This document shows, one piece after another, positions 1 to 49,215 of a DNA stretch of 64,000 nucleotides. The translations under genes were made by a program, and so were the position numbers. The notes beneath the pieces were generated by a model, which saw only the letters and a program-made list of their open reading frames with translations, did no database searches and was not told the DNA's origin. This DNA is from a virus: positions 20,236-84,235 of IMG/VR virus record IMGVR_UViG_3300021197_001521. The stretch is one strand, 5' to 3'. Each line of letters begins with the position of its first letter. The stretch's first letter is position 1.

Positions 1-3000
1 TGGACTGCAAATCAAGTAATATACCCTAAAGAAGATGTTAGTTCTAGTGGGTTCATCAACAAGTCTAAGGAGTCCACAAATCTTTACCAAAGTATTGACG
101 AAGGTGTTTTTGTTGGCAATTCTTATTATAGCAAAGACTATAGTATTGTTGCAGATGATTCCACCTCTTACATAACTGCATCTTCTATAAATACAGAGTT
201 TGAAGCAAACTATAAGTTTAAGTTTACGGATTTACTTGTTAGACCAGCAGAAAACAGACTTAGAATAAAAATGTCTGGTCCGTTGAAAAACTATGAATCA
301 GATTTACCTCCTAAGTTTCACTTTACTGACGTAAAGATGGAAGATCCTTCTGGTGGTCTTATTTGTGAATACGAGGACTTTACTTTTATTGGCGATTCAA
401 ACCAATATATAGACGACGCCAACTTTGTAACATACTCGCTAAAACCATCTCTCAACTATGCAGAGAGGTATCAGTGGCAAGATAACTATCCAAATCTTTA
501 TGTAACCTCTGGTCACACGCTTTCATTCAACGTGACATCAGAAGACATGGGGCATCCATATTCAAAATCTGCGTACACATTTGGTTTTAAAGGCGATAAT
601 GACTTTGTTGCATCTGATCAAGAATACAAAGACTTTTTCAGTGTTAGTGGTATAAATCCAAGTCTAAGAATAACGGCGATAGAACTCTATGCAAGTGGAA
701 GAAAGATCCCTTACAAAGAGAACTTCATGAACACCTATATCTTAGGTCAGACACAAGGAGGAAGAGTAGAAAGAGTAATAAAACCAACAGCGTTCTTGTT
801 GTCAGATTTTGATACTGGTATTCGTCCTGCTGCGTCTTCCATCTGGGAGGGTTCTCATGGTAGAAATAATTCTAGCAAACTAGGCGCTTTAGAACTGCTT
901 TCTAACATAAGGGGTTCTGGATATGACAAATATATAACTACTCACAATGATGCAAGTCAGTCTGGTAAACTTATTCTTCAATTTGGTCATCAGCGTGACG
1001 ATACTTTCTACGAAGTTAAACCAGATTCGTTCCTTCAAAATTCTTTCTCTAATATTTTCTCTAGATGGTTTGATGAAGATCAGGGAGTATTTAATGCTAA
1101 AGACAAGTTAACACCTCATCAAGACGGGTTCTTTAAAGTAGAAGATATTAAACTAAGAGTCTTGGCAAAGAAAAATGTTGGTGCTGCAAATTATGTCTTA
1201 GATGTTGTTGGTTATAGCGATGACTGCATAATTCATGTAACTCCTGCTATGGGAGGATTCTTACAAAATACTCCTAGTCAAGACGTTGTAGACTATTCTG
1301 ATGATAGTATTACAACTTTTTCTCCGCAGGGAACTGTACCAACGGATTCTGGATTTGGAAATGTTGATGATCTAGGTCTTAGTACTGAACCTGTTTCAAA
1401 TAAAGATCAATACTTTGAAGACAACACTAGCAACAATCTCGGTGGCGACCATGATCTGATTTCTACCTATCCTGTTGTGTCAGCAACAGAATTTAAGTGG
1501 TATGAGATACCGTTAAGAATATATAAAGATGATGTTGAACTAGGCAGAATAATAGACTATACTCAAAGCACATACCTAGAAAAACTATTTTTGGATATTT
1601 ATCCTTTACCTAGTGGCGCTTCAATCGGCGCAATAGAGTTGGCGGTTAGGTATAGACCTCAGTCAGCGCTTGAGATGATTGTAGAAGGTGGTGATTATAG
1701 AAAGATACAAGACGGCAGAACAGAAGGGTCGTTCTATCCTGTTGCTAGACAGGTCTCTACAGATCCTATATTTAATGCTGGTTCTGGATTCGCTCCGCTT
1801 TCTAGGATCGAAAATATACCTCATGCGTATGCTTCGCCTGATACAATAAAAACAAACTATGCTAGAAGATGGAGAGGTGTTAACGGTGTTGCTGGACATG
1901 CATTCCAAATAGATCAATTTAGCAGGGCGTTTGACGAGAGACGAATAAACACGCCATTCTTAATGTCTCACGTAGACTTTAGCAACTTGGAAGACGATGC
2001 GCCCACTTCTGTTAAGTTCTCTTCTGAGAAAACCTTTGAAAACGTTCACATGACGTTAACTGAGAACGGAACACCAACAAGCCCAGACATACACCAAAAC
2101 GTTGGAATGAGATTTAGTAGCGGAACAATGTTTGGTTCTCTATTGCCATCCTACTCTGGTAACTATAAAACAGCAGACTGGACATCTTTAATTAATGGTT
2201 CAAATAACTTTACAGACCATGAGCTTTACGGACAAATATTTGATGGTTACGATAGGGTCGTAAGATTTTCAACTAAGACTACCCTAGAGTTAGGAGAAAA
2301 CATTAATCCTTCTAGTGGTGTTTCTGCATTCATTAGGTTTATACCAGATGCTAACGCAAGCGGAATTGGTTACAATTTCTATAACTCTAGTACACTGTTT
2401 AGCACTCAGTTTGCTTCTATTCCTAGTCGATCAGGTTTGGTGGTAGGTTTTAAAGATGGTTATCTTTTTGCTTCCGGTCACACCACCACTTCAAATTTCC
2501 TTATACAAGATACTATAAAGTATAGCGGTTATCAGTATCCATTGTCCGTATTGTTTACTTACGACGAAAATGGCGACAATAGAGCAAGGTTGTATACCGA
2601 CAACGAACTATACCAAGGTGATTTCCAAAACATTAGGGCGTCGAGTGAACCTATCCAGATGGAAAATCTGAGCGATAAGTTTACCTTTGGTTATGCAGGA
2701 TCTTCTGTTTCTGGTATGCCTATGTTGATCAGCGAAGTCGGCGTAACAAACAGTGGAAATATTCTTAACTCTGGCGCCCAACTCCAAGACAATCAAGTAA
2801 GCATAACTGAGTTCTTTGATAATATAAGGGTTAAGTTCTTTAATCCTAACGAAAGCATAAGTAACGATAACTTTAAACTTTGGTCGTATGTTGATGAAAA
2901 TACTTATACAGATTGGTATTTAGGTGCATTTAAATCCTGCGAGTACAATTTTGAGTTTGATTCACTAAATAGCATCAAGGGTAAAAAAGCAGGCAGAGAC

Positions 3001-6000
3001 CTTATAAACTTTAAGTTTGATTCTGATGGATCTGCATACTCTACCTACGCAACCAAGGATATGCCTAACACCGTAAACTCTGGTGTTGCTTATCACAGTC
3101 AATTGGAAAATGACTTCCTTAGATTCTACTTGTCAGACGCTTCTTCCAACTTCTACGCAACTCATAGAAGGGTTGCAAAAAGTCTACCTAGAAACTACGA
3201 CTTTGCAGAAAAAGCATTGGTTGTAGAAAGCATTATTGAGCATAGCTCTAGCGGAAGTATGGTTTGGGATGATGGAAATGTCGGTCCTAAACTGATAGTA
3301 AGTTTGTATACCAAGAACAAAGAACCTTATTACGTAACAGATGATCCTAACTGGGGTCTTATTAATAGACATTATCACTACCTGCAACCATCCAGTTGCT
3401 TTACCAGACTAGATAGCACGTTTACGTATGGTGATTACTGTGACGACACAGAAAAGTGGGCATTGTTCCCAGAGGAGAAAAAACTTTCAGAGTTGACAGA
3501 AAAGTTTTATTCTAAAGATATAGATGATATGTTTGTTCAATATGATATAGCATATCCTTCTGGTTCTTCTCTTCGCTCAAATCTTAATGTTCACACTGTT
3601 CATGTTAGAGCAGAGGATGCTTGGGTTAAACCAACGGCAGATTCTGGTTCACTGAATTTGACGACAAGTGGTAATATTGTTGAATCCGTGAAGATGGACA
3701 TGTATATGTTTGGGGTGTCTGGTTCTTTGAATGACACTCTTGGTCTTTGTATGAGCGGTGTGAAACCCGTAAAGGCATCTGGAGACTTTATACTTTGTGT
3801 TAGTGGCGCTAAAGCAACAAACGATACCCTTGGACTATACACATTAGACTATGGAACAATAAACAACTCTGACGGAAACGTTGTATCTTCATTGCCTCCT
3901 TATCTTGATTTTGTTGTAGGAGACCACGATCCGGGTCAGTTTGGATTCTTCTTGGTTACGTCTGGAGCGCCAGAACCAGTTATAACAACTTTAAACAATC
4001 TGTCTGGAACAAATGGTTCTGGAATGGGCATGTTTATAGAAGGACTAGGATTTACCAGCGGTATCCTGCCTTTATCTGTAGCGAACGATCAGCAAGCTAG
4101 TTCCGATAGCGGTGTACTTAAAATGTCTGTATTTGCTGATTCTGGTGTTCCAAGAATTCAGAGTCAGATGCCAATATTCTTGTTACAAGAACAGTATTTT
4201 GCAGAATCTGATAGTGATTTTGGCGATACGTCAGGCAACTTTAATTTGTCTCTTGTTGGCGCTGCCATAAACAACAATACTATTAGCGAGACCGCAAACT
4301 TGTATCTTGAGGGTCAAGAGTCTCTACAAGTAAGTGGACTCATGAACTTGTTCCTAGACGGACCTCCTGACCCAACTATTCAAAGTGGAATATTAGAGTT
4401 ATTAATTAGAAATAATAATCTAAGATCAGAAAGTAATGTTCCCGGAAATCCTCTTGTTTTCTGGAATGGGGAAAACTATGGAACCTCCATAGATATTCAA
4501 GATAATATTTATGCCACGTTTAGCGCAGACGACGAAATAAGAGGTGTAGATTTATTTGGGTTTGGTTTCTGTGATAGCGACAGTCCAGACAAAGCGTTTG
4601 ATGAAGCGCTCGTTGTTGACGATGTTGTTTATAGAGACAGAGTTTGTAATGATGGCGGGATATTTAGAGCAACTGCAACATACACAAATGAGGCAGCGGG
4701 ATATCAAGACAATTATTACGGAATAAGAAAATTAACTGGACTCAAAAAAGGACGACCATATCTTGTAAACCTAAAAATAACAACCGGAAACACAGATCCT
4801 ATTCCTGTGCCTAATGATTGGGAAGAATGGGAATATGGAATTTGTGACCCAGCATTTGATAGTATGTGTTGCACTAGAGATTGTGACCAAGCACTTGCGT
4901 TTAGTGGTGTTAAACTTATTGGTGATTATCCATATCTTAGTGGTAATTCGAGTCTTATAGATGTAAGCGGAAGGCAAGCGGGCGACAACTACGGAAAGAG
5001 CATGAGGGTCAAGAAAGACTTGCTTGCAGTAGGTGCGCCTAACCACAATGTAAACGATGCTAGTGGTTATTATCTAGAAGACGCTGGCGCTATATTCCTA
5101 TACAGAAGAGATCAAGAAGTAGCAGGCAAAAAAGCAGATTGGCAACTAGAAGAGAAATTACTTCTGCCTCTTGGGGCGAGAAGAGACTTTGTAAGTAGAA
5201 AAACAGGAACTCTAGTAAACTTTGGAAACTTCTCCATAGCGGGTCAACAATGGGAGATTGGTCAAGAGGGTAGAGAATTAGGATTCTCATTAGATGTCTG
5301 TCAAAGCGGAGAAAGAGAAGTTGTTGTTGCTGGTGGACCGGGAGGCAAATGGTCTAGAACATTCCCAACCGTTGTAACTTCTGGTGTCCCAGTATTTATG
5401 ATGCTCTTTACGGACAAGTTTACTTACAACAGAACCAAACTAAAAGAAATAGTTAGAACTGCCAGAAAGTATGACATACTGTATAAGTATTTCTCTGCTC
5501 CTTGGGGTACTTCTCCAGATGAATGGCATCCTGAATTAGATGTAAACCTTCTAATATGCCAGATGTTTACTAGTGATAACATAGACGACCTTCCGTCTGT
5601 TCCAAACACTAGAGAGCCTTGGTTCAATCATATGTACTTGAACGATGTTCTTGATCCAGATATAAACAAAAACGAAGCAATTAATACTGGTGTTAGCGGT
5701 GTTATTTCTAAATTTAAAGAAATATTCCCACATAGAAATGCCCTACACAGTGGTGTACCTCCAATAGTAGGTATTTTTGGTGACAACACATTCTCTACAA
5801 ACTTTACCAACTCGTTTAAACCTATACTAGATCAATTCGTAGACTTCTATAATGACTACTCGCTTGCCAGCGGCGTTTACGATGCGGTAAACTCTAATCC
5901 AAGTAAAGGTTATGTAAATCAGATATTTGACGACGCATTTAATTGGGATCAAGCATCTGTAGAAATATTGAACAAAACACTAGACAGTGGTAATTTGATA

Positions 6001-9000
6001 CTCACAGATAATCTTAAATTTATCACAAGCGGCGTTGGTCAAGAATATGCGAGAGATGATTCTGTTGAATTCCAATCTCCACCTGAGTCTGGCGGAAGGG
6101 TCTATATATTCGAGAAAGAGTATGGAGACTGGAACCTTATCCAAGATATAATATCACCAGAAGAAGAAGCTCTTAACGGAAGTTACGACACAGACGACTT
6201 CATTCCGGGTTATGGCGATCAGAAACCTATGGATAGATTTGGCCATGCCGTTTCTATCAGCGACAACAGTGAAATCATTTCTGTTGGTTCGCCATATATC
6301 AACGAAGCATGTCAGATTTACGAGAGAGACGACTCAGAAAATACCAGAATGTACACAGTTGTTCTAGACTGGTTGACTGAAACTCATGATCCGTTTACCA
6401 AGGATCTTCAGTCTCACATTGATCGTTACAATGAATTATTGGCAGCGTCAGGAGCTACTGTCGCAAGACTGGAAGTTTATAAAGATCTTAGTAAATTAGA
6501 TAAATTCTTGCTTAGAAAAAATAAAGACATTAGACTTTACAGAAAAGTCTTTAACTATGATTATACAGACATTAAGTACACGGGATCGTGGGGTGTTATA
6601 CCTCAAGAGTTTGCTGGTACTTCTAGATTAGGATTTAGCACTGCTATCGACGAAGAAGGTGATGTAGTGGCGTTTGGCGCTCCTACTGACTCCTTTAATG
6701 AGTTTGATGACTACAACGTTTGGTATGGTGGTGTTAGAAGTAGAACAAATTATCCTAAAAACAACACTTGGGCATCTTATACAAATGCCGGTGCTATTAG
6801 AGTCTTTGAGTCAAGAAAATACTTCAAGCACAACAAAGCGGTTGAGTTCTTTAAGTTTGGTAACTTGGATAGAAGTGTTCATCAAGATATTGATAACCTT
6901 AGTTTGTATTATAATAACCTTGGCACGTTCTTTGATGTTGATGGTGTTTCGTTTGAAAGAACGCAGTTTGAAGATATAGAAATACCAACAGATGCTGGTC
7001 TTGCATTTATTATTACGCCGGAACTAGATGCCGCTAGTGATGAGATTGTAGATAATATTAAGTCTTGGTTGGCTTTGGGTGATAGAACGTTAGTGTTAGT
7101 TGGTAATGACCCTCTGTACGAAGAAAATGGACTGTATGAAAAGTCTAACGATATAATTAACAAAATATTGAAAAAACTCGGTTGTAGAATGAGAATTGTT
7201 CCGGCGAGAAACAGAGAAGAATCTCTTGCCGCTGGAGTTACTAATTCTGGTGTGTCTAGTTTGAGATACAATACAGTTCCAGCGAGACTGCCTAGATTCT
7301 TACATGAATCTCATGCGATTAGAGGAAATATCTTTGCTAGTGGTGTTGGTGACATTAAAATAGATCTTTCTGATTTAGGTCAAGAAGATTTTTATATTTA
7401 TCATCCTTGCGACCCAGATACGTTTGATAGATGTGGACTGCCTCTTAAACATATGGGAGACATAAGAGCAGGTTGGGAATCTAAGTGTGATCCAAAAATA
7501 GAATACGAAACAAATTGGGGATTCCATTTTGACACACCTAATCCAGCGCAATCTTGCGAGAGATACCCGCAAATACCTAAACCTCTTCTGGTTGTTCCTA
7601 ATAATGAAATAACACCTGTTATAGCAGCGGCAGAATATAAACCGCAACCTCCAATAATCATAGAGGCAGACAGTGGTACTGAAGAAAGGTGTACTACGAT
7701 ACGGACTGGAACTAGAACGGAAACTATAACCCAAGGAACTACGACCTATAGCTTTGGAACAGAGACGGTTGGCGAACCAGTATTTAATATTCAAGATACA
7801 GCCTCTGGTATTAGCGGTATATACAACTCATTCAATCATGTTAAGTCTGAGTACAAAGAAGGATTCTTCTTCAATCCAGATAAAGAAAATACTAGAGATG
7901 GAATCATTCAGGCGAAGGGTACATCTTTCTATGGAGAACCTGCCTCTTCAAGAAGAAAGGTTAGTGACTTTAGTATTTATGTTGCAGAAGAAATATTTAC
8001 AGATAACGATAGCAACAAGTTGTACATGATCGCCTCCATGCTTCCAGAAAATGGTTGGAGCATGGGAGACTTGTTTGGAGATGAGTTTGATCCAAGGAAT
8101 AATGACCAAAATATAGCATTCTACAACAACTTGGTTATGGAAAATTGCACATCTAGGGCAAACATTTATCAACTAGGCGACTGGACTGGTAGATCATCCC
8201 TAGAAAATGCTTTCTCAGATTCTGTTGTTGAAAAAGTATTGAAGAAAAATGGTCATTTTGTTGTAAATAATGCTACAAATATTCCTAGTGTTTGTAATGT
8301 GCTTTGGATAGCAGATCCGCTAAATGCTCCTACTGACGACAACATGAAAGCAATCAAAGATTGGTTGGCAGAAGGAGATAAAAAGATTGTCGTAACCTAC
8401 GGCAAAACACAGCAATCCGCAGACAATGTTGCCATACTGTGTGATAAACTTGGTATCGGAACTAAACCTTTCTTTGTTGAGGGGGATGACAATAAGTATT
8501 ATGTTCAAGATACAGATATAATCAGAGAGTCTAACTTGACTTCATGTTGCCCAGTGGAAGGAGATGATACCAGTAAATTACAGTTATTAGACGATTCTAA
8601 CATTGCAATATCAGGTTGCGAAACATACACTTGGGCTAATTCTTACGGAGTTAACACGAAGGTTGATAAACTTTCTGCAATACCTAACGGTGCAGATCCA
8701 ATAAACCTTGAGGTTGAATTTGACCCAGAGGGCGATGGGTTTACCGACTACGCATATATTCCTATTAAACTTGGTCCAAGCGGAACCTCTGTAGTCAAGT
8801 TTAGAGATCCTATATACGAAAATTTCACAGAAAATCCAGATTTATTCTGGAAAATAGTAACAAAAGAAAGTAGCATAGAGTTCCCCGTAGTACAAAACTC
8901 AGGTTACAGATTATTTGCGGAATGGGTATCTGAAACAGATGAAGAAAAGTACGACATACTTGCTTGTGTTGATGACTTGACTGTTAAGTTCTCTCCAGAA

Positions 9001-13265: not shown

Positions 13266-13272
13266 GATTATC

Positions 13273-13740: not shown

Positions 13741-13743
13741 AAA

Positions 13744-34896: not shown

Positions 34897-34897
34897 A

Positions 34898-36026: not shown

Positions 36027-36998
36027 TTATATCCCCTTGTAAGCTCTATCAAAAACGTTATTCCATTTAGTTATAAATTCTTGCTCTGAGAATTTTTCTT
36101 CTATAGTTTTTCTTGCCTCCGCACCCATTTTAGCAGCAAGCGGTTTGTCTTCAAGTAATTGCTCGCAGTAAGATCTAAGATCTTCTTCGTCGTTAGAAAT
36201 AAATCCATTAACGCCATGTTCGATAAAGTCAGGTATTGCACAAGTCTCTGTTGTGACAATAGCACAACCGCAAGACATTGCTTCTAACATAGACGTAGGA
36301 ACTGGACTCAAAACGCTTGGGTTTATATAAACTAGAGCATTTTGGTATGCTTTGATTAAATGTTCCACAGATTCACTTTGACTAGAAAGACCTTCTGTTT
36401 CCCCTACAACTACCCTGTCTAAACCTTTTGTAATTCTTTCCCAACCTTGATAGTTCAGCGCATAGTCTCTTTTTATGAAATCATGAGCAACCGTCAGGAT
36501 CTTACTCCTATCTGCACCATCGTCCGGTTTAAAGATGTTGGTATCTACGGAATGCTCAATTACATCGCCGTCCATACCCCATTTTCCTTTAGAGTAATTT
36601 GTTATAAAAATATTATAATCACCCCTCATTGATAGAAACTGATTTAGGGTTTCTTGAGGCCACTGTGGTATAGGAAGCGTATGCTCCAAGGATATCAAAG
36701 GTATCTGTAATGTGTCATTTATTTTTTGTGCAACTTGATATTGACCGAATTTACTATGCGAAAGTATCATGTCAAAGACTATATTTGGAACATTATTTTT
36801 ACCTAGTTGGTAGCAGTTTTCCGGCATTTTTCCATGACCTTCATACCAATCTTTTCCTTCTTCATGGTTAAATGAATAGAAGTTATGACCCGTTTTTGCC
36901 AGTTGAGTTTGGTATCTTTCATGGGCATTGAAGGTTAGTATGTTGTACTTTGTTTTATTTCTGTTTGCTTTGTCTATAATGCTGATTTGCCTACGCAT
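36027..36998 (-). CDS. Glycosyltransferase family 4 (GT-B)
   Basis: HSVDTNIF, VYINPS...PTSMLEAMSCGCAIVTT, HGVNGF, MGAEARKTIEEKFS. Confidence 0.9.
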   Translation of the reverse strand: MRRQISIIDKANRNKTKYNILTFNAHERYQTQLAKTGHNFYSFNHEEGKDWYEGHGKMPENCYQLGKNNVPNIVFDMILSHSKFGQYQVAQKINDTLQIPLISLEHTLPIPQWPQETLNQFLSMRGDYNIFITNYSKGKWGMDGDVIEHSVDTNIFKPDDGADRSKILTVAHDFIKRDYALNYQGWERITKGLDRVVVGETEGLSSQSESVEHLIKAYQNALVYINPSVLSPVPTSMLEAMSCGCAIVTTETCAIPDFIEHGVNGFISNDEEDLRSYCEQLLEDKPLAAKMGAEARKTIEEKFSEQEFITKWNNVFDRAYKGI

Positions 36999-38096: not shown

Positions 38097-38972
38097 TTAT
38101 AAATGAATAATTTTATTTGTGTCAAAAAAATGGTTCAATACATCTGGTTTTTTCTGGTTTAAAATCCAGTCAATATCTTCTCTGTCTATCTCTTCTTTTC
38201 TATTGTCTCTTGAGTAAGTGTTTACGGAATTATTTTTCATTCTATAAGATAGAATTGTTTCTCCATTGTATAAACAGGTCGCAGGACATCCAATCCAAGT
38301 TTCGTGATTATTTACAATAAAAAAGTTAGCAGAACATTTTAAATGAGTAGAAACCCCACCAGCGTTTCCTAAACAAACAACACAGTTTGAAAGCATAAAA
38401 TACGAAAGCATTTCACTGTATGTGGTAGTCGATACTTCTTCGTAATTATCACTAAAACTAAGGTTGGGTTTTTCTATCGTCAAATTAATAACATATGCAT
38501 CGTTCTGTAAAATTTTTGCTATATAATCTTCAAGCAAATTATTTCTAAATCCCGTTATAGGATTGTTGATATTTCTAGCGCTTATAACTACTATAGGTTT
38601 ATCTATTTTTTCTAGTTTGTTCTTTATTAAAGTATAGTCGTGTTCTAAAGGTTTATTTGTTCCAAACCCCTTCTCTTGAATCGTTTTATTTATATATGTA
38701 AAATTTCTTTTGTAAACATGTGTCTTGTCTTCATCAAAGTCTGCTCTATATGTAACGTTATTATTATCATACCAACTTCGTAAATGATTACAAGATGAAT
38801 TGTTCTTGCCGTCTATTAAGATTTTATCAAACGACTCAAATAAAACTAAAAAGTTATATCCTGCATAAGTATAATACTCTTCGTCTATTTTTCTGTTGTG
38901 TGATAAAAAATTATTGCTTATGTCGCAGTAATTAAACTCGTCATATGAATACGGAAGCGAAATCTTATTCAT
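38097..38972 (-). CDS. Hypothetical protein, possible GT9-like/GT-B C-terminal domain
   Basis: SNCVVCLGNAGGVSTHL resembles GT9 'DSG..HLA'; visibly AT-rich; inside the glycan operon. Confidence 0.4.
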   Translation of the reverse strand: MNKISLPYSYDEFNYCDISNNFLSHNRKIDEEYYTYAGYNFLVLFESFDKILIDGKNNSSCNHLRSWYDNNNVTYRADFDEDKTHVYKRNFTYINKTIQEKGFGTNKPLEHDYTLIKNKLEKIDKPIVVISARNINNPITGFRNNLLEDYIAKILQNDAYVINLTIEKPNLSFSDNYEEVSTTTYSEMLSYFMLSNCVVCLGNAGGVSTHLKCSANFFIVNNHETWIGCPATCLYNGETILSYRMKNNSVNTYSRDNRKEEIDREDIDWILNQKKPDVLNHFFDTNKIIHL

Positions 38973-39732
38973 TTTTTAATGGATAGTTTAAAATAAAACT
39001 CATCCCCCCTGAATTAAACTCTCCATGAAAACCGAAAGACTCATAACTTATTAGCATGTTTCTTGCAAAATATCTATACGGCGTTGGGTGTTCTACAGAA
39101 AACTGTGCTGCTAACTCAGGCGGGGCAAATCTTATACCTGCTTGTGTCATTCTGTCATAGTTAAATACGCATATGTTTAAGTCTTCATTCTTATGTTCCC
39201 ACCCAAGTTTGGCAGACTCTTCTACAAATTTTCTAGTTCGCAAAGAGAATCCACCATTACCCACAACATTTGGAATATTATCTATTCTTCCAGCAACCAT
39301 GTCCGTTGCTTGGATTATATGCATGGGCCAAGGCGCGCCTATGTAGTCGTAGTCTAAATACTGGTCTGTCCACTTATTACTATCTATAATAGTAGAATCA
39401 TGCTGAACATTCAAGCAAAAATCATCTGTAATGTATTTATTTGTTTGTTGAACAAAAGATTCACAGAAACCTATTCTGTTTTCATCATCGTTTTGTAGGT
39501 TGTCATTAAGGTCTACTTTCATGTCGTAGACTTCTATGTTATTCTTGTTGATGATTTTTTCAAACAAAGACAACTGAGTTTTACTACTATCTGTAATTAA
39601 GACACTACGCTTAAAATCTACCTGATCCATAGCAATCAACATAGATCTAAGAGATTTTTCTACATGTTCTGTACCCCAGCAAAATGTAAATACTGTTACG
39701 TCTGGTAGTTGTAACTTATTTCCAATAGTCAT
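38965..39732 (-). CDS. DUF5672-family protein (GT-A-like)
   Basis: VQHDSTI...W...YLDYDYIGAPWP...VGNGGFSLRT...NED...A..FSVE...FGFH. Confidence 0.85.
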   Translation of the reverse strand: MTIGNKLQLPDVTVFTFCWGTEHVEKSLRSMLIAMDQVDFKRSVLITDSSKTQLSLFEKIINKNNIEVYDMKVDLNDNLQNDDENRIGFCESFVQQTNKYITDDFCLNVQHDSTIIDSNKWTDQYLDYDYIGAPWPMHIIQATDMVAGRIDNIPNVVGNGGFSLRTRKFVEESAKLGWEHKNEDLNICVFNYDRMTQAGIRFAPPELAAQFSVEHPTPYRYFARNMLISYESFGFHGEFNSGGMSFILNYPLKNE

Positions 39733-40735
39733 AAATACCCTTCGTTGTTTCGTAATCCATTACCTTTTGTTCGCGTTTAGGTTGGGTCATCGCCCACCTG
39801 AACATCTCATCAATTGTTTCCTCTAGGTTGGTGTCGTCGCTAAAGCCTAACATTTCTTTTGCTTTTGCGTGATCGCAATGCGCATGTTTAACTTCGTGCC
39901 GACCTTCTACATGTTTTTTATCTGCTTGAAAACCATTTTTTAAAGCTACACGCTGCACTGTATCTGCCAGTTGGTTTATTGAGTATGCTTTGTCTGCTCC
40001 AATGTTAAAAATTTCTTTATCGTGACTATCAATCAGTTTTTCAAAAGGTTCCATGTAGTATTTGATATCAGAGAACGCGCGAGTCTGCTCTCCGTCTCCG
40101 TAGATTAACATAGGTTCGCCAGCAAGTATACGTCTAATAAAAATACCTACAACGTTACGATATTTATCCCAAATGTTTTGGTATATACCTACGACATTGT
40201 GTGGACGAACAATATTATAACGAAGACCGTGTTGATCGTGTGCAACCTTTAGGTCCATCTCTACGGTATATTTTGCAATACCATATGGATCAATTGGCAC
40301 TGGTCCCATCGTTTCTGTAAATGGAGGATGATGATTACCGTAAACTGCCATAGAACTGGTAAAGATCATTTTTACGTCATGATTGATACACGCATTGATT
40401 AGGTTAACACTTGCTAAAACATTATTTGTATAATTATAATGTCTGATAAATGGCGACAACCCTTCTGCTGCATAAGCAGCAAAATGATAACACGCTACAA
40501 TGTCACGGTTAGGGTCAGCAAAAATATGCTCTAATGCCCTTGGAGTCCCTTCGCTTTTACTGAGGTGTAGCGGCCAAAACTCAAACTGCTCTAACGTGGT
40601 TTCTTTGGGAAGATAATCTTCATAACTGCCGCTAAGATCATCAATACCTATAACCTTGTAACCCTTTTTGATTAGGTGACGAGTTAGGTGCGAACCAAGC
40701 AGTCCTGCGCATCCAGTTATCACAACTTCTTTCAT
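39716..40735 (-). CDS. NAD-dependent nucleotide-sugar epimerase/dehydratase (extended SDR)
   Basis: ITGCAGLLG, HFAA, SSMAVYG, YGIAK, IYGDGEQTRAF. Confidence 0.92.
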   Translation of the reverse strand: MKEVVITGCAGLLGSHLTRHLIKKGYKVIGIDDLSGSYEDYLPKETTLEQFEFWPLHLSKSEGTPRALEHIFADPNRDIVACYHFAAYAAEGLSPFIRHYNYTNNVLASVNLINACINHDVKMIFTSSMAVYGNHHPPFTETMGPVPIDPYGIAKYTVEMDLKVAHDQHGLRYNIVRPHNVVGIYQNIWDKYRNVVGIFIRRILAGEPMLIYGDGEQTRAFSDIKYYMEPFEKLIDSHDKEIFNIGADKAYSINQLADTVQRVALKNGFQADKKHVEGRHEVKHAHCDHAKAKEMLGFSDDTNLEETIDEMFRWAMTQPKREQKVMDYETTKGIYDYWK

Positions 40736-42418: not shown

Positions 42419-42739
42419 TTATTCCTTATCTAAACAACCAAAATCAAATTCGTTAATTCTAAATGTAATATCGTCTGTGGCGTCTGTTTTCATTACGCCG
42501 TTTCTCGCGGAGGCATAAACAGTCATCTTAGTTCCTTTCTTTCCAAGTTTAGCAATCGTCTCTGCGCCACTTGCCCACGCTTGCAGCGTGATAGTTGTTG
42601 AAACTTTCTTCTTTTCTCCACGTTTATTTTTACGATATTCGTAAGTTATCATTTTTACAGTGCAGCAGGCTGGTCCGTCATCACCACCCTCTACCTGTGG
42701 GTCATGTAAAAGATACCCAGTAAAAGTGCAATTATTCAT
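42419..42739 (-). CDS. ssb: Single-stranded DNA-binding protein (OB fold)
   Basis: MNNCTFTGYLLHDP...QAW...AETIAKLGKKGTKMTV. Start moved to the ATG at 42739, which has a GGAG RBS; the longer tracked ORF overlaps the promoter. Confidence 0.75.
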   Translation of the reverse strand: MNNCTFTGYLLHDPQVEGGDDGPACCTVKMITYEYRKNKRGEKKKVSTTITLQAWASGAETIAKLGKKGTKMTVYASARNGVMKTDATDDITFRINEFDFGCLDKE

Positions 42740-42770
42740 CAATTTCTCCAATAAGACTGTCTTACTTAAT

Positions 42771-42799
42771 ATTATAGTATATAACTTAAAAAAAGTCAA
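42771..42799 (-). promoter_or_regulatory. Sigma70-type promoter upstream of ssb and the glycan operon
   Basis: TTGACT (42799-42794), 17 bp spacer, TATAAT (42776-42771) on the - strand. Confidence 0.85.
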
Positions 42800-44371
42800 T
42801 TATATTTCGTGTATTTTATTAATAATAAACGAACCGTCTTTTTCTACCTCTCCGCAGAATAATAAGTTAAGACCTTCATCTAGTATATATTTAGTCTTCT
42901 CTGTAGTCTCTGGAAAGACCACCACATTATCAATAGAGCAAGTTTCATCTTCCAGTGTCAGGAAACACATATCTTTACCTTTGCTCTTGCCTTTTTTGCA
43001 TTTATATTTCTGCAATCTACTAACATTTGCTACTATACAGATATCTTTACCGTGTTTTCCATTTAGTATTTCTTTACACGAAGTATTTGAGTGCGATGTG
43101 TCAGACGCTTCTACTTTAGACAGCGAGACAGGGCATCCCAAGAATTTCTTTTCTTGTTCCACAATCCATTCTGGATCATCCGATAGGTCATAGGGAGGGT
43201 TCTCTATAAAGAACATTTCGTTCTCAATGATTTGCTTCCTATCGACCTTACTAGTTCCACCGCCTTCCTTTTTTGTGGGCGCTAGATCTTTAAACGCATC
43301 ATAAAGATTGTCCCATTTGCGTACAGGATAATTTATTGTTAACCATTTAAGTTCTGCTTTTGTTAAGTTTTTAAATATCAAATATTCATAAAGAGCTTTA
43401 TTCCTAGTAACTCCAATAGACTTGGTGGAAAAGAATCCGACAGAACATAGTGCTTTAAATGCAGTTGCATTAATTTTAGGAGATAAGTATACAAGAACAT
43501 CCATCCAGTTAAATTCTTTTGGTTTCTTGTTTATGTCTTTACAGGTTTCTGATACTGCCTTTATGACTTTATCGCCATTAACACCCGTTAGCGACTTAAT
43601 GTCTTTAAGACCGAAGTACAAGTTGTTCTTATAAACTCCAAAAGTCTTGTTAAATAAAGTCAAATTAGGAATTTTTACTTCTATGTCAAATAACTTTGCT
43701 TCAGATACAAGTTCGTAAACTTCTTGATGTGGGTCTTGCTTTTCATTCGCATAGGTTAGGTATGACAAAAAGAACTCTTTAGTGTGATTCGCTTTGTACC
43801 AAGCGCTCCTATACGAGTTTTCTGCGTAGCATATAGCGTGGGATTTATTAAACGAATAGCGTGATGACTTTTCAATCCAACCAAAGATTTCTTCGGCAGT
43901 CTCTACGTCTACAATACCCTGCTCTGTGCATCCCTGCAAGAAGTCTTCCCTGACTTTAGCCATAAGGTCTGCTTTCTTCTTACCAATCGCCTTACGAAGC
44001 ACATCTGCTTCTTGTAAGTTGAAACCAGCAAGTTCTTGAGCGATACGCATAGACTGTTCTTGGTAAATCAATACACCTTTAGTGGATTGCAAAACATCTG
44101 TTAGCGATTCATGCAGATACTTAATTACATCCAGACCGCTTTTCCTGTCAACGTAATGTTGAGTCATAGACTTTCCATCCGTTATCGCTTTTAGCGATCC
44201 CGGTCTAATCAAAGCAATTAACGCCGCAAGTTCTTCAAGATTGGTGGGATGTAGTCTTTTAGACCAAGCGCGCCCAAGATTACTCTCTAACTGAAAGACA
44301 CCTTTTGTTCTGCCGTCCTTAAAAAGATCCCATGTTTTTCCGTCTTCGTAACTAAACGTAAGTGTTGCCAT
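42800..44371 (-). CDS. dnaE: DNA polymerase III alpha, C-terminal half (fingers, HhH, OB)
   Basis: TKGVFQLES, ALIRPG, GVLIYQEQ, ADVLRKAIGKKK, YSFNKSHA, EKKFLG, MCFLTLED. Start taken at MATL. Confidence 0.92.
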   Translation of the reverse strand: MATLTFSYEDGKTWDLFKDGRTKGVFQLESNLGRAWSKRLHPTNLEELAALIALIRPGSLKAITDGKSMTQHYVDRKSGLDVIKYLHESLTDVLQSTKGVLIYQEQSMRIAQELAGFNLQEADVLRKAIGKKKADLMAKVREDFLQGCTEQGIVDVETAEEIFGWIEKSSRYSFNKSHAICYAENSYRSAWYKANHTKEFFLSYLTYANEKQDPHQEVYELVSEAKLFDIEVKIPNLTLFNKTFGVYKNNLYFGLKDIKSLTGVNGDKVIKAVSETCKDINKKPKEFNWMDVLVYLSPKINATAFKALCSVGFFSTKSIGVTRNKALYEYLIFKNLTKAELKWLTINYPVRKWDNLYDAFKDLAPTKKEGGGTSKVDRKQIIENEMFFIENPPYDLSDDPEWIVEQEKKFLGCPVSLSKVEASDTSHSNTSCKEILNGKHGKDICIVANVSRLQKYKCKKGKSKGKDMCFLTLEDETCSIDNVVVFPETTEKTKYILDEGLNLLFCGEVEKDGSFIINKIHEI

Positions 44372-45029
44372 TTGCAAATGCCTTTTCAAGTTTCAAGTTT
44401 CTGTAGACGGCACGATGCGTCTTCATAAATTTAATCATCAAGTTTGCGGTATCTTTGACATCTTGCAGAGCGTCATGGGCATTCTCGGTATCCATACCCA
44501 TCCTGTCTCTAATAGCGTCCATACTCCTAGATTTTACACTAGGATCTCCCTCTGTCCACATATAATAGTTGTCCATCATGTCGATTTTATGGATTTGATG
44601 AAACAACTTCTGTCTCTGTCTTTGGTCGTCCCAAGGTCCGTATTCTTTACAAAGTCTATCTACAATAATCATATCGTATCCTAAAATATTATACCCAGCA
44701 GCAATCGGAGCGAAGAACGAAGTTCCTTTCCAGTTATACTTATCTACAAAAGCGCAGAACTTTTTCCAGACTGCTTTCGGTTTAGGTGCTTTTGCTATCT
44801 CTTCTCTTGTTTTACCTGTTACTTTTAAAGCACCGTCTTCAATTGGACCAAGACCTTTCTTTGTCGCTTTTTCGTCATTGGTTTCTGCCCATATTTCGCT
44901 ATTGAACTCACCTTTTAGTCTAAAGTTTCTGCCGTCCAAGGCTATTGCTGCCAACTGAGTGGGTTGACATGTTACTGGATTTCTACCACCTGTCTCAAAG
45001 TCAAAAACAATTATATCACGGTTCGACAT
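44352..45029 (-). CDS. dnaQ: DEDDh 3'-5' exonuclease (DnaQ/epsilon-like)
   Basis: VFDFETGG (Exo I), GYNILGYD (Exo II), AHDALQDV (Exo III). Confidence 0.88.
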   Translation of the reverse strand: MSNRDIIVFDFETGGRNPVTCQPTQLAAIALDGRNFRLKGEFNSEIWAETNDEKATKKGLGPIEDGALKVTGKTREEIAKAPKPKAVWKKFCAFVDKYNWKGTSFFAPIAAGYNILGYDMIIVDRLCKEYGPWDDQRQRQKLFHQIHKIDMMDNYYMWTEGDPSVKSRSMDAIRDRMGMDTENAHDALQDVKDTANLMIKFMKTHRAVYRNLKLEKAFANGNTYV

Positions 45030-46683
45030 TATTTTCCTTCATTTTTACGGAATCTGGATTGGCTACTATGTAGTCAATATACATAAGTTTATCAAGCAGG
45101 TTAATTGCCAGAACGTCAAACTTAACGTGACCAAGTGCCTCTAAGTCTGCCATCTCTAGTCCTGCTATCTTTTCATCACTACTTTTTGAGTTTACCATAG
45201 GGCAAACTTCTGATAGTTTGTTTGCTGATATAACAACACCCGCAGCATGTTTGCCTTGAGTTTTCAGCGTACCCTCTATCTTGATCGCTTGTTCAAAATA
45301 TTCTGCATAGTCACCTTCTAAGTAACCCTTCTCATTTATGTGACAATAATCATACAAGTCTTGTTCGTTGTTTTGCAACGCCCACCTAATAATAGATCTG
45401 TCTTCCTCGTCCATCTGTGATAGTTGATCAGAGATAGCCGCTTCGTCTGGAATATATTTTGTAATCTCGTTCATCACGCTAAACCCACACGCTTCGTTTA
45501 CACGTAGGATTTCTTTGATTGCGCTACGCCCCTGTAGTCTACCGAACGTCACCATCTGACTAACATTGCCGTGTCCGTATTTATCTTTGATATACGATAT
45601 GATTTCGTCTCTTTTCTTTCCGGGAATATCTATGTCGATATCTGGAAGTGACACATTATCTTTAGTGTTTCTACCACTATTATAGAATCGTTCAAACAAT
45701 AAGTCAAATTCAATCGGGTCAATCTGAGTGATTCCTATCAAATAAGATATCAAACACCCAGCAGCAGAACCGCGACCCGGACCTACCATCCAGCCTTGAT
45801 CTATCGCATACTTAATAATATCACGAACAATAAGAAAGTAACCAAACAAATCTGCTTCTTCAATAACTTCAAATTCTTTCCTGAATCTGTCGCCATACTT
45901 TTGTCTACCTTCTTCATCTGTGATTTTTTCTGCGAGTAGATCTTTCCACCCTTTTCTAGCAAGTGTCCTTAAATAATCTTTCTCTGATTCTCCGTTGGGA
46001 GTGTCAAACTTAGGAAGAACAGGTTTGCTTAGAATGTTATAATCTTCGCACTGATCATATATCTCATCAAGACTCTGTGTTCCTGCTGGATCTTCAAGCA
46101 TAGCTTCTGTTGCTCCAGTTTTATCTGGAACAAAAAAGTGAGAAAAGTCAAAAAACTTTTTATTAGGAAAGTCTTCTTTGTTTTTGAACTTCTTTCTAAG
46201 TTTAGGAAGAGTAGTCTTCATTTCAGAGCAAAGCAAAATCCTGTGTAGATGAGCGTCTTCTGACTCTGTGTAGTGCAAGTCTTGAAAACATCTACTTTTC
46301 TCGTACCAACCTTTTTTAATTGGCGAATTCGCAGCAGAGTCTGCTAGAACAATCAAGTTTCCTTTGTTGCAAATTTCAGACAGGTCGCTTGCATTGTAAT
46401 CTCCGTTTTCATCCAACAGAGAAACAATCTTGATTAGGTCAAACCAACCTTTTTCGTTTTTCGCAAATAGCGTGAAGCTATCGAACGAACAACCTATAAT
46501 TGGTTTTATGTCGTTAGCAACACATGCCTGATAGAAAGCCACAGCGCCAGAGATTGTTTTGTAGTCAGCGATGCCGCAAGCGCGGAATCCGTTGTCTTTA
46601 CATTTCTTGGCGAGTTCTTTGGGTTTAGAGAACCCTTTTAGTAGCGAGTAGTGTGTGTAATTACAGAGTGGGAACCAAGTCAT
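45016..46683 (-). CDS. dnaE: DNA polymerase III alpha, N-terminal half (PHP, palm, thumb)
   Basis: YSLLKG, GPGRGSAAG, LLFERF, PDIDID, GKHAAGVVI, VKFDVL; RBS AGGAG. Confidence 0.93.
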   Translation of the reverse strand: MTWFPLCNYTHYSLLKGFSKPKELAKKCKDNGFRACGIADYKTISGAVAFYQACVANDIKPIIGCSFDSFTLFAKNEKGWFDLIKIVSLLDENGDYNASDLSEICNKGNLIVLADSAANSPIKKGWYEKSRCFQDLHYTESEDAHLHRILLCSEMKTTLPKLRKKFKNKEDFPNKKFFDFSHFFVPDKTGATEAMLEDPAGTQSLDEIYDQCEDYNILSKPVLPKFDTPNGESEKDYLRTLARKGWKDLLAEKITDEEGRQKYGDRFRKEFEVIEEADLFGYFLIVRDIIKYAIDQGWMVGPGRGSAAGCLISYLIGITQIDPIEFDLLFERFYNSGRNTKDNVSLPDIDIDIPGKKRDEIISYIKDKYGHGNVSQMVTFGRLQGRSAIKEILRVNEACGFSVMNEITKYIPDEAAISDQLSQMDEEDRSIIRWALQNNEQDLYDYCHINEKGYLEGDYAEYFEQAIKIEGTLKTQGKHAAGVVISANKLSEVCPMVNSKSSDEKIAGLEMADLEALGHVKFDVLAINLLDKLMYIDYIVANPDSVKMKENNVEP

Positions 46684-46713
46684 CAATATCTCCTTTCAAT
46701 ATGGTTTCAATGT

Positions 46714-46754: not shown

Positions 46755-47798
46755 TTATAACACAATTTCTTGATTAGGAAGAATAATAGTTTTTCCTGAA
46801 AAGTACTTGATGTACTTTGCTTCTTCTTCAGAACTTTCTACAAAAAAATCGCAATTAAATTTTTTAAATACCTCCGACTTGTACCTGCCTACCACTTCGT
46901 GATGATTTTTATCTCTTTGATTTTCCTGTTCCGTGGGAAACATTATCAAGTGTTCATAATTAAATCCATGCTTTTTCAACCAAAATTCTGTTTCTTCTCT
47001 AAATTTTTCCAGTCTTCCGGTGACTAGCGCCTTTGCTTTAAAAAGTTTTGGTATTCTTTTTTGGTATGGTTCTATCTTTTTTATGTATTTTACGTAGAGT
47101 TTCTCATTCTTACACACATCTAAGGGTACATCATTACAGAAAATACCGTCGATATCAAAACATGTGGTCCCACAGTAACCAGAGTTGAACAAGTTCCACT
47201 CCAATATGTGAGGTAGTTCTAATTGTTTAGAATGATAGTCAATCAAACTAGAAGCAACTTCTGTTGAGAATATAGAAGCAAACTTAATATTTTTGCCAAA
47301 TGTTTTCCTCATAGCTTTAACTGTCGTTCCACTACAACTTGTGTCGTCTACAAACAGTAGTTTTTTTAATTTATCGGAACTGCTATATTTTTTATAGTAT
47401 TTCATCCTGCTCCCTCCGTAGTCTGAGGCATAGGTTAAAATAACTATTTCTTTTTCATGTATAGAAAATAAAGGTTTATTTATATGGGTTGCGATTATTG
47501 ACGCAGGAACCATTCCAGATCTAGGTACACCAACTATGCCGTCAAACTTGCTGGCGATTTCACAAAGATCAAGACTTGTATCAATTAAATTTTTGTTTGT
47601 TATATACTTTATAGATGAGTTTTCTTGAATTTTTAGCACTTCTTTTTGTTCTACAAAATTCTTATTGTTAAGTTTTCTGTAATTTTCTCTTTTTTGTTGT
47701 GTTGATTCTTTACACCACTTTATTCCAGCAGCGTCCATCTGCCTGTGATATATTTCACAAAATCCAGCGCCTTCGCAATGACACTTATCAAGTCTCAT
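46755..47798 (-). CDS. Type I phosphoribosyltransferase + HAD-like phosphatase fusion with a Cys4 N-terminal tag
   Basis: IVGVPRSG and LLFVDDTSCSGTT (PRPP loop); FDIDG and VTGR...ETEFWLKKHG (HAD motifs I and II). Confidence 0.8.
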   Translation of the reverse strand: MRLDKCHCEGAGFCEIYHRQMDAAGIKWCKESTQQKRENYRKLNNKNFVEQKEVLKIQENSSIKYITNKNLIDTSLDLCEIASKFDGIVGVPRSGMVPASIIATHINKPLFSIHEKEIVILTYASDYGGSRMKYYKKYSSSDKLKKLLFVDDTSCSGTTVKAMRKTFGKNIKFASIFSTEVASSLIDYHSKQLELPHILEWNLFNSGYCGTTCFDIDGIFCNDVPLDVCKNEKLYVKYIKKIEPYQKRIPKLFKAKALVTGRLEKFREETEFWLKKHGFNYEHLIMFPTEQENQRDKNHHEVVGRYKSEVFKKFNCDFFVESSEEEAKYIKYFSGKTIILPNQEIVL

Positions 47799-48328
47799 TT
47801 TTCATATTCTCCATTCTTAAAATCTTCATAGTGAAGATAGTATATCTGCTCTTTTTGAATTTCCGTAAATTCTACACCCGTCTCTATGCTTTTGTTGAAT
47901 TGTGGCAAGAAATCTATTTTTATATCTAAACTTTCAAAATCTTCTACTAAATTTTCTACTTTTACTAAGTGGTCATATTGATATAATCTCGTTACGGGAA
48001 AACAACAAGCACATTTGGAGTTCTCAAAGAACCATTCGTCAAAGTTTATTTCGTGGAAGTACTTTGAATGCTTCCACATGCTATTAACTCTATTGTAAGG
48101 GTTTCTTACTGGCAGTATTACTTCGTATCCTTCATCTTTAAAATGATCGCTAACTAAGTTGTTGTGCTTGTGTTCAAAAGATCTACACTCTGTGCTATCT
48201 CCTGTAATTGTAGGGTGCGCTCCATAGAATTTGTCCCACCCCATTTCAGAAAATATATTTTCTAGCGTTGTACTGTAATTTTTAAATGGTGTGGAAATTA
48301 TTAATTTTCTTTTTTTGTTTACCAGCAT
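47795..48328 (-). CDS. Sulfotransferase family 2-like protein
   Basis: PFKNYSTTL (PAPS 5'-loop-like), VRNPYNRVNSMW, VKVENLVEDF. Confidence 0.65.
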   Translation of the reverse strand: MLVNKKRKLIISTPFKNYSTTLENIFSEMGWDKFYGAHPTITGDSTECRSFEHKHNNLVSDHFKDEGYEVILPVRNPYNRVNSMWKHSKYFHEINFDEWFFENSKCACCFPVTRLYQYDHLVKVENLVEDFESLDIKIDFLPQFNKSIETGVEFTEIQKEQIYYLHYEDFKNGEYEK

Positions 48329-49215
48329 AATTCTAAATCCCTTTCCATGTTTTCTTCTCTGTTCTTGTCTCCAGCGTAATGTATAAAGAAAGCATCTTTT
48401 TTCATCGTGTCAAAATCTTTCATCCAAGATTGACAGTTAAACTCTGTTGGCAAGTCCTCTGTTTTGTATTGATAATAGAGACAGTTAGACTCAATCTGAA
48501 ATTGTTCGTCCCAGTGTGTTTGCCTGTAGTCGTAATTGATTGGTTCCCATAAATTTTCATGACACTTTGAACTTAGGACAACTCCTGTGTTATAAACTTT
48601 CTTTGTATTTGCCAGTCTATCTATTGTCTTCTCGTCATCAAATCTACACGATAACAGTTTCTTCTTGTCTTTTATCCCCCATCGCGGAGTCAAAAAGTCT
48701 CTATCATTGTGCATTGAAACGCAGTCTTCATCTATAATATCAAAAAGATTAGGACTGTTTCTTTTTACTAGAATGTCTATATCTAAGAATAAAATTCTTT
48801 CATACGCAGATGAATACTTTCTAATTCTAAACTTTTCGTTTCCCCAGTATTTCTGAGTTTGACCTTTTAACAGAATAAAGTCTGCTCCGACCTTTTGAGA
48901 ATAGTCCTGCATTAACGGACCAGAGAATTTATAAAGCGACCCAATCGGTCCAGCGCCAACCGTTATTATAAGATTTTTACTTCTTGGGTTAGGTTCTGGG
49001 TCAGACTTTACTTCTTCAAAGAAATATTGAGAATAGTTTTTACGCTCAACACTTTTGCTTGCAACGCTAACAGGGTTGCTTTTTAGATAGTAACCTTTTC
49101 TTTTCTGTTCCGTAGTTCCTTGACACCACTTCCAGTTTGGTGGCGAGTGTCCCATAACCTTGCCAAAGACGGGGCAGAACCCCGCCTCATGGCAAGTGCA
49201 TCTCGATAGATCCAT
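48319..49215 (-). CDS. GT-A glycosyltransferase (GT8/GT34-like) with a Cys4 N-terminal tag
   Basis: ILFLDIDILV, YNTGVV, DEQ, LPTEFN, FIHYAG. Confidence 0.8.
   Translation of the reverse strand: MDLSRCTCHEAGFCPVFGKVMGHSPPNWKWCQGTTEQKRKGYYLKSNPVSVASKSVERKNYSQYFFEEVKSDPEPNPRSKNLIITVGAGPIGSLYKFSGPLMQDYSQKVGADFILLKGQTQKYWGNEKFRIRKYSSAYERILFLDIDILVKRNSPNLFDIIDEDCVSMHNDRDFLTPRWGIKDKKKLLSCRFDDEKTIDRLANTKKVYNTGVVLSSKCHENLWEPINYDYRQTHWDEQFQIESNCLYYQYKTEDLPTEFNCQSWMKDFDTMKKDAFFIHYAGDKNREENMERDLELCW

Follow-up and report, generated by a model that had tools for sequence, protein, structure and literature searches.

A family-wide operon of soluble glycosyltransferases beside the replication genes of marine phages, with virion fibre proteins as its possible acceptors

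Introduction

What does a tailed marine phage build with at least 13 enzymes of glycosyltransferase (GT) fold, and onto what acceptor? The question is raised by a minus-strand operon (25782-42417) in the IMG/VR virus record IMGVR_UViG_3300021197_001521. The stretch analysed, here called the window, is 64,000 nucleotides long and covers bases 20236-84235 of the 84,235-bp viral contig, which is about half of a genome whose full size is ~165 kb by CheckV-style estimates on relatives. An earlier, sequence-only reading had proposed that soluble phage enzymes build a complex glycan directly on virion proteins in the cytoplasm, possibly at Ser-Gly (SG) sites.

Phage virion glycosylation and large phage GT clusters are already known in kind, with precedents for virion glycosylation in mycobacteriophages (as cited in PMC12619734) and in giant viruses (PMC4691112). 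Here we show that the operon consists of a seven-gene conserved core flanked by hypervariable tailoring sets, and we conclude that the phage probably builds a strain-specific glycan in the cell, most plausibly on its own fibre proteins. In the part of the literature covered, we came across no earlier account of a soluble glycan operon that joins a family-wide core to variable genes, adjoins SSB and DnaE and carries ColD and candidate ribofuranosyl transfer in abundant marine phages.

Results

Gene content of the operon

Each gene of the operon abuts or overlaps its neighbour, and the operon directly follows the SSB and split-DnaE genes, with a gap of 2 nt between SSB and the gene for a GT4 of 561 amino acids (aa). 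The sequence-only reading had counted about 10 GT-like genes in ~17 kb; the operon is real and richer than that, with at least 13 GT-fold genes by Pfam, profile and fold searches, a ColD/Fcl deoxy-sugar module and an epimerase, so that clustered GTs stand together with dedicated nucleotide-sugar enzymes. By Pfam, nine proteins belong to GT families (seven of them above the gathering cut-off), two are SDR enzymes and one is of the DegT family; profile or fold searches added four GT-fold candidates (36991-38082, 33269-34156, 34898-35635 and 38097-38972). The genes of the operon and its flanks are listed below, with AlphaFold2 confidence as the predicted local distance difference test (pLDDT).

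23932..26234, minus strand: operon end, four small conserved genes, for a 115-aa Zn-ribbon protein (weak matches only) and for proteins of 254, 259 and 150 aa
26243..33291, minus strand: variable accessory block, eight genes (Pfam), from here to 32527-33291
26243-26932, minus strand: GT2 (Pfam)
26929-27867, minus strand: Fcl/ColC-like reductase, SDR (Pfam)
27869-29026, minus strand: ColD-like 3-dehydratase, DegT-family (Pfam)
29011-29763, minus strand: GT11 (Pfam)
29760-30641, minus strand: weak GT2 (Pfam)
30634-31446, minus strand: GT10 (Pfam)
31436-32527, minus strand: weak GT2_2/GT7C (Pfam)
32527-33291, minus strand: GT2 (Pfam)
33269..38082, minus strand: conserved core, part 1, six genes (homologues in the same order in related loci)
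33269-34156, minus strand: CgeB-like compact GT-B, 295 aa (profile and fold searches, AlphaFold2 pLDDT 90)
34153-34896, minus strand: NTP-transferase-like protein, 247 aa, with a degenerate Gly loop (profile)
34898-35635, minus strand: weak GT-A-like protein, 245 aa, with a Cys4 N-terminus (profile)
35610-36026, minus strand: truncated methyltransferase-like protein, 138 aa (fold and profile)
36027-36998, minus strand: GT4, 323 aa (Pfam)
36991-38082, minus strand: GT-B, 363 aa (profile search)
38097..40735, minus strand: second variable block (Pfam, NCBIfam, Atlas), next three genes
38097-38972, minus strand: GT-like protein, 291 aa (Atlas features only)
38965-39732, minus strand: DUF5672 (Pfam)
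39716-40735, minus strand: GalE-like SDR epimerase/dehydratase (Pfam/NCBIfam)
40732-42417, minus strand: conserved core, part 2, retaining-type GT4, 561 aa, with a conserved helical C-terminal extension (Pfam), first gene after SSB
42419..46686, minus strand: SSB, DnaE C-terminal part, DEDDh exonuclease and DnaE N-terminal part (Pfam), adjoining the operon on the same strand
46755..49215, minus strand: mini-cluster of PRTase+HAD-like, sulfotransferase-like and GT8-like proteins (three Pfam matches below gathering scores)

Conserved core and variable blocks across the family

A scan of IMG/VR with the DnaE C-terminal part gave 284 relatives, from which 80 loci were kept and homologues counted by tblastn; polymerase identity in the family ranged from 47 to 91%. 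The 561-aa GT4 was found after SSB in 72 of the 80 loci. The 363-aa GT-B was present in 57, the 323-aa GT4 in 51 and the NTP-transferase-like gene in 44, and the genes for the 138-, 295- and 245-aa proteins had tblastn homologues in 19-29. Wherever the core genes were present, they stood in the same order, and orthologues of the four small end genes held the same end position in relatives. The split DnaE with its DEDDh exonuclease gene inside the split (42800-46686) was kept in 79 of the 80 loci.

The two variable blocks gave far fewer matches. In block 26243-33291, the Fcl-like gene had homologues in 16 of the 80 loci and the others at most one weak homologue each. In block 38097-40735, the genes had homologues in 3-18 loci, the 18 belonging to the GalE-like SDR gene. 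Apart from these two genes, no gene of either block was matched in more than 3 of the 80 loci, and the variable genes differed even from those of the nearest complete relative, G008. At the same positions, relatives carry non-homologous genes that again encode glycan enzymes (89 proteins), among them 14 FkbM methyltransferases and 12 GT2 enzymes, with Glyco_trans_1_2, RgpF, WavE, GMD, UDP-GlcNAc 2-epimerase and cytidylyltransferase proteins among the rest. All five complete relatives (G008 at 135521-136603, and G006, G007, G009 and G010) have another conserved GT4, ~360 aa long, well away from the operon and at a position beyond the end of this contig.

Two core members look apparently non-catalytic in this phage, as judged from their motifs. 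The Gly loop of the 247-aa NTP-transferase-like protein reads SENHG, as against AAGxG in distant relatives, and the 138-aa protein matches a class I methyltransferase in the C-terminal half only and lacks the N-terminal half that binds S-adenosylmethionine. The 245-aa protein has four invariant Cys residues followed by a weak GT-A match.

The 561-aa core glycosyltransferase

The 561-aa GT4 was modelled by AlphaFold2 at pLDDT 85. Its best PDB fold match was B736L of chlorovirus NY-2A, followed by BshA, MshA and sucrose-phosphate synthase, so that the protein is a generic retaining GT4. The top PDB sequence match of its profile, Gtf1/GtfA, covered 40 residues only, a generic GT4 motif. The 561-aa GT4 is the candidate priming transferase. 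More than 3600 metagenome clusters matched it, the top 120 all at 72% identity or more. One metagenome homologue, P0108, is 937 aa long and contains an intein (PF14890 plus a LAGLIDADG domain), an element mostly found in phage genes that are essential and highly conserved.

No useful match to the 561-aa GT was found in GenBank phages. Because the same holds for a 1320-aa SG-rich protein of G008 described below, there is no cultured comparator. Cellulophaga phage phiST was considered as a GT-less relative and set aside, as it has only the DnaE type in common and is too distant.

Since BshA, MshA and sucrose-phosphate synthase make small-molecule glycosides, the product might be something other than a virion glycoprotein: a glycolipid, a glycoside of a small molecule, a free oligo- or polysaccharide in the cytoplasm, or a glycan carried by a phage or host protein outside the virion. 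The apparently non-catalytic core subunits, which suggest an unusual complex, would suit such a product. However, an internal metabolite would hardly account for accessory GT sets that vary so strongly, and such diversification is typical of glycans exposed at a surface or to immunity. We consider an acceptor of this kind somewhat unlikely.

Deoxy-sugar module and upstream mini-cluster

The DegT-family protein (27869-29026) had its best PDB matches with ColD (2gms and 3gr9, E 4e-54). Its HH..T.EGG motif aligns with ColD, and a His stands at the position of the ColD active-site His, replacing the catalytic Lys, as is diagnostic of a 3-dehydratase dependent on pyridoxamine 5'-phosphate. The Fcl/ColC-like protein scored 276 bits with the Fcl model against an equivalog cut-off of 500 (E 3e-82). 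The second SDR is GalE-like, with an E value of 6e-8 for the gmd model. GMD was not found in the contig, which holds about half of the genome, and may be supplied by the host or by the missing half. From these matches, the products of block 26243..33291 are predicted to provide 6-deoxy or 3,6-dideoxy sugars of the fucose or colitose type and to transfer them. A literature search of limited coverage returned no report of phage-encoded colitose.

The sequence-only reading had also noted a second, smaller cluster at 46755-49215. The cluster is present, but its three Pfam matches (PRTase, sulfotransferase and GT8) are all below gathering scores. The phosphoribosyltransferase (PRTase)-like protein (46755-47798) reached 24.8 bits against a Pfam cut-off of 26.3, its PDB matches were purine PRTases (E 3e-3), and a DxDG motif lies in the part C-terminal to the PRTase domain. 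A PRTase joined to a phosphatase-type domain is the architecture of the ribofuranosyltransferases of O-antigen and capsule synthesis that depend on phosphoribosyl pyrophosphate (PRPP) (PMC11231755), and the PRTase+HAD-like protein is a tentative candidate for that class.

The PRTase-HAD and GT8-like (48319-49215) proteins have in common an N-terminal Cys4 tag (38% identity over 56 aa, E 5e-9). The tag, ~45 aa long, also occurs on unrelated enzyme bodies in loci L007, L008 and L017 and in G008 at 38430 and 111371, the tagged bodies in relatives including proteins of 373 and ~640 aa, and might serve for docking or targeting. It is distinct from the Cys-rich N-terminus of the 245-aa core protein, which was compared with it. 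G008 has paralogues of all three mini-cluster genes (PRTase-, GT8- and sulfotransferase-like) on its structural strand (38430-40806).

Absence of membrane components

The claim that the operon has no multi-pass membrane component held up when it was extended to the contig and five complete relatives. By a Kyte-Doolittle scan, which is not a trained predictor, no operon protein had a convincing transmembrane (TM) helix. The contig and the relatives had no large polytopic protein, and no Wzx-, Wzy- or WecA-like protein was found; the multi-TM proteins were either tape measure proteins or small, with 2-5 TM segments. Neither the operon nor the six genomes showed by hydropathy a GtrABC set (GtrA flippase, GtrB bactoprenol-phosphate GT and polytopic GtrC), and no Pfam family for an initiating phosphoglycosyl transferase, a flippase or polymerase, or an ABC exporter was among the operon proteins. 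The PAP2-family phosphatase at 50156-50836 was rejected as a lipid-carrier phosphatase, as it is outside the operon and without a TM segment; it has no signal peptide, and homologues occur in 19 loci.

The missing membrane genes are also compatible with remodelling of the host envelope, because the GTs of bacterial O-antigen loci are mostly soluble or peripheral as well. The soluble phage GTs would then act on undecaprenyl-linked O-antigen, capsule or glycoprotein-glycan intermediates of the host at the inner membrane face, using the host's own initiating transferase and exporter, and the altered surface would block superinfection or the adsorption of progeny to debris. Colitose, GT10/GT11, FkbM, RgpF, WavE and PRPP-dependent ribofuranosyl transfer belong to the usual repertoire of O-antigen or capsule synthesis, and ColD homologues 65-68% identical to the phage protein are found on contigs of 587-656 kb, which is a cellular size. 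Two tandem DUF1501 genes (50836-53339) with twin-arginine translocation (Tat) signals (RRHFL and RRAFL) point to an investment in the host periplasm. Their nearest named homologues, at 63-67% identity, are from Planctomycetota metagenome-assembled genomes and Gimesia, on contigs of up to 1.2 Mb, a possible hint at a planctomycetal host.

On the other hand, the core is kept across 47-91% polymerase identity and therefore seems to serve one conserved acceptor, while host surface glycans are highly variable. GtrA, GtrB, GtrC, Wzx, Wzy, WaaL and an ABC transporter were not found in the six genomes, and since no lysogeny genes were seen in the window, a lasting seroconversion is improbable. Overall, the host envelope is a serious rival target, although a less likely one than virion fibres.

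Absence of a route to glycosylated DNA

The operon adjoins SSB and DnaE, and genes for a deoxynucleoside monophosphate (dNMP) kinase and dUTPase are in the same arm. Such a position would suit GT-B enzymes that add sugars to phage DNA once it is replicated, by analogy with T4, RB69 and the metavirome 5-hydroxymethylcytosine (5hmC) clusters, with variable GTs diversifying the DNA glycan against restriction systems. An Atlas feature match (rank 30) links the 295-aa GT-B to a cluster partly made up of the T4 glucosyltransferase family, a lead only, and known phage DNA glycans reach three sugars (bioRxiv 10.1101/2023.12.21.572611; PMC13326640).

Every known pathway to glycosylated phage DNA is opened by a thymidylate-synthase homologue, a C5-methyltransferase, TET/JBP or another 2OG-Fe(II) oxygenase (PMC13326640; bioRxiv 10.1101/2023.12.21.572611). 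Their role is to make the hydroxylated base that accepts the sugar, through a thymidylate-synthase homologue for 5hmC, 5hmU or 5hoC, or through a C5-methyltransferase together with a TET-like dioxygenase. Such enzymes (PF00303, PF00145, PF12851, PF13640 and PF13532) were found in none of the five relatives that are 94-100% complete; the negative for TET/JBP is weak, as PF12851 matched no control genome. Moreover, at least 13 GTs, deoxy-sugar synthesis and O-methyltransferases go far beyond any known DNA glycan. DNA hypermodification is thus very unlikely.

Ser-Gly excess in structural proteins

The operon converges on a plus-strand arm, as the sequence-only reading had stated, and a hairpin separates the two arms.

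1..11478, plus strand (contig 15550-31713 for the whole gene): giant protein, C-terminal 3825 aa of a 5387-aa open reading frame, directly after the tape measure gene
11478..23873, plus strand: five structural-arm genes, for proteins of 595, 155 (13273-13740), 1652, 1460 and 244 aa, with collinear orthologues in G008
23905..23931, between the convergent arms: hairpin with a 12-bp stem, then a T-rich tail

The window is preceded by small structural genes and by the gene for a tape measure protein of 1991 aa (matched by PF10145 and by PHROG tape-measure families), and because the giant gene starts right after the latter, the plus-strand arm is taken by position as the tail and fibre arm. The giant protein, a presumed tail-tip or fibre protein, is the only one of the six window structural proteins recognised by Pfam (FG-GAP repeats); the 595-, 155-, 1652-, 1460- and 244-aa proteins had no Pfam match, and a PHROG search with all six gave none.

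The structural proteins had been described as unusually rich in Ser-Gly. This is so for the giant protein and for the 155- and 244-aa proteins, whereas the 1652-, 1460- and 595-aa proteins have no more SG than expected. In the part of the giant protein inside the window, 83 SG were counted where ~29 would be expected (2.17 against 0.76 per 100 residues), and the whole 5387-aa protein, the main carrier of the excess, has 99 against 41. The 155-aa protein has 5 against 0.7 expected, and the major capsid protein shows no SG excess. When the structural arms of the contig and G008 were pooled, SG was the top over-represented dipeptide, with 527 against 291 expected (observed/expected, O/E, 1.81), while GS had an O/E of 0.95 in these arms and SG an O/E of 1.15 in the other arm. 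Each of the six genomes likewise had SG as the most over-represented dipeptide of its structural arm, with an O/E of 1.39-1.84 compared with 1.08-1.33 elsewhere; the T4 structural proteins, taken as a control, gave 1.11.

The giant orthologues of the contig and G008 are 47% identical, and 46% of their SG dipeptides are conserved, compared with 21% for all dipeptides. G008 (L084) also encodes, at 2547-6509, a 1320-aa protein with 72 SG against 18.6 expected in regular [A/V]SG[V/L/I] repeats. Its gene adjoins a Gp80-type head-fibre gene, and the similarity of the protein to virion structural proteins of Synechococcus myophages is limited to the N-terminal 130 aa. Taken together, these counts show that the SG excess is real, family-wide and under selection.

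The sites do not resemble those of animal proteoglycans, where acidic residues flank SG or SGxG and an enzyme of xylosyltransferase type initiates the glycan, and the analogy to their Ser-Gly sequon is abandoned: the context is [A/V]-S-G-[V/I/L]-L, SGxG occurs at only 42 of 526 sites, and no xylosyltransferase-type family was among the Pfam matches. The hydrophobic, repeat-like context would also suit an acceptor outside the virion, the SG excess then being an unrelated motif of the fibre fold. The operon and the SG excess are both present in 6 of 6 genomes, a co-occurrence that is uninformative because no family member lacks either trait. Between operon length and SG O/E there is a loose rank agreement (hand-calculated Spearman about 0.7, n=6, genomes not independent).

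Discussion

The enzymes are soluble, export parts and a pathway to a DNA acceptor were not found, the putative primer is conserved and its extension is hypervariable; together these features point to a cytoplasmic glycan on a conserved phage acceptor that is exposed to selection. The proposal that soluble enzymes build a glycan on virion proteins therefore stands as regards the enzymes, the missing carrier, flippase and polymerase, and the missing DNA-glycan route, and as the acceptor virion fibres fit best: we put forward, tentatively, that they are glycosylated by a phage-autonomous, membrane-independent assembly line. In G008, a GT2 gene lies between the genes for an RCC1/dockerin protein and a 1411-aa fibre-like protein, and this gene and the PRTase/GT8/sulfotransferase-like trio are among head- and tail-fibre genes on the structural strand, which argues for fibre proteins as acceptors.

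Several observations weigh against fibre glycosylation. The operon shares the strand of the replication genes and comes immediately after SSB and DnaE instead of lying in the late arm, and its accessory enzymes are of bacterial O-antigen and capsule types (GT10/GT11, colitose, FkbM, RgpF and PRPP-dependent ribofuranosyl transfer). The phage also exports its Tat-signal DUF1501 proteins and thus does act on the envelope of the host. Of the five complete relatives, only G008 showed a GT2 gene within the structural arm. The 1652- and 1460-aa proteins, among the largest structural proteins, lack the SG excess, AG is conserved nearly as well as SG between the giant orthologues (42%), and an SG with hydrophobic flanks and repeat spacing could equally be a turn motif of fibrous folds or a sequon. 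The virion glycoprotein itself is a prediction from gene content.

If virion fibres are indeed the acceptors, the following pathway may be proposed. The core, consisting of the 561-aa GT4, three further GT-B enzymes, the Cys4/GT-A-like protein and the degenerate nucleotidyltransferase- and methyltransferase-like subunits, would be transcribed with the replication genes, and the 561-aa GT would prime a conserved, phage-encoded acceptor. The accessory enzymes (GT2, GT10, GT11, DUF5672, ColD/Fcl and the epimerase) would extend the glycan to a strain-specific structure, joined by the upstream candidate ribofuranosyltransferase and the GT8-like and sulfotransferase-like proteins, and the product would contain fucose- or colitose-type deoxy sugars. 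Exposed fibrous virion proteins would be glycosylated in the cytoplasm before or during assembly, the likeliest being the giant protein that follows the tape measure protein and, in relatives, the head fibres. More speculatively, the Ser of [A/V]-S-G-[V/I/L] in head and tail fibres might be the sequon of this O-glycosylation, primed by the 561-aa GT4 and extended by the hypervariable accessory enzymes, although we consider this attachment site doubtful, with the odds well against it.

The proposed pathway resembles several known systems in part. Cytoplasmic O-glycosylation of repeat adhesins is carried out by GtfA/GtfB on serine-rich repeat proteins and by BAHT, which heptosylates autotransporter repeats; these systems likewise use soluble GTs on Ser of repetitive fibrous or beta-helical surface proteins, but neither a GtfB-like partner nor a BAHT homologue was identified here, and the GtfA match is the generic GT4 motif only. 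In mycobacteriophages of the Che8 type, soluble phage-encoded GTs without export parts are also proposed to decorate virion proteins in the cytoplasm. That system has few GT genes, with glycans shown on the C-termini of capsid and tail-tube subunits (Freeman et al. 2023, as cited in PMC12619734), whereas the present one has at least 13 GT-fold genes plus sugar-nucleotide enzymes, a major capsid protein without SG excess, and a predicted glycan. Chloroviruses and mimiviruses (PMC4691112) likewise combine soluble GTs with GDP-sugar fucose-pathway enzymes and methylated or rare sugars, and the B736L match of the 561-aa GT is to a chlorovirus protein, the similarity being generic GT4; theirs are eukaryotic viruses with N-linked capsid or fibril glycans, while here the virus is a tailed phage and the acceptor is one that we infer. 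Bacterial O-antigen and capsule loci (PMC11231755) share the ColD-like enzyme with its diagnostic His, GT10/GT11 and, tentatively, the Fcl/ColC-like reductase and the PRTase+HAD architecture, whose matches here are below cut-offs; neither the initiating phosphoglycosyl transferase of such loci nor a flippase, a polymerase, a ligase or an ABC exporter was found here. The T4 alpha- and beta-GTs and the 5hmC and 5-hydroxycytosine glycan clusters also place GT-B enzymes beside replication and nucleotide-metabolism genes, with far fewer GTs than here and with the hydroxylated-base enzymes that were not found in the complete relatives.

Whatever the acceptor, the family has a membrane-free glycan pathway wired to replisome genes, and, judged by the matches to its core GT, the family is very abundant in metagenomes. 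If the glycan is on virions, tailed marine phages would build complex, rapidly diversifying sugar coats, of a kind shown so far only for a few mycobacteriophages and giant viruses, and such coats would bear on adsorption, particle stickiness, decay in seawater and recognition of the phage by hosts or grazers. If the SG sequon is also true, an abundant ocean phage family would acquire coats whose glycans, rich in deoxy and methylated sugars, differ from strain to strain. The core enzymes and the small SG-rich fibre proteins allow a simple co-expression test without a cultured host.

The minus-strand replication arm as a whole encodes PhoH, dUTPase, RecA, DnaB, primase, dNMP kinase, a PD-(D/E)XK nuclease, the split DnaE and SSB. 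Sigma-70 promoter counts were not above those of shuffled sequence, so that expression timing is not readable from them; a promoter-like site matching 11 of 12 positions lies at 46742-46714, as a consensus match only. The lowest G+C content of the window, 31-33% compared with ~37-40% elsewhere, is at 30001-36000, which takes in part of the variable block and part of the core.

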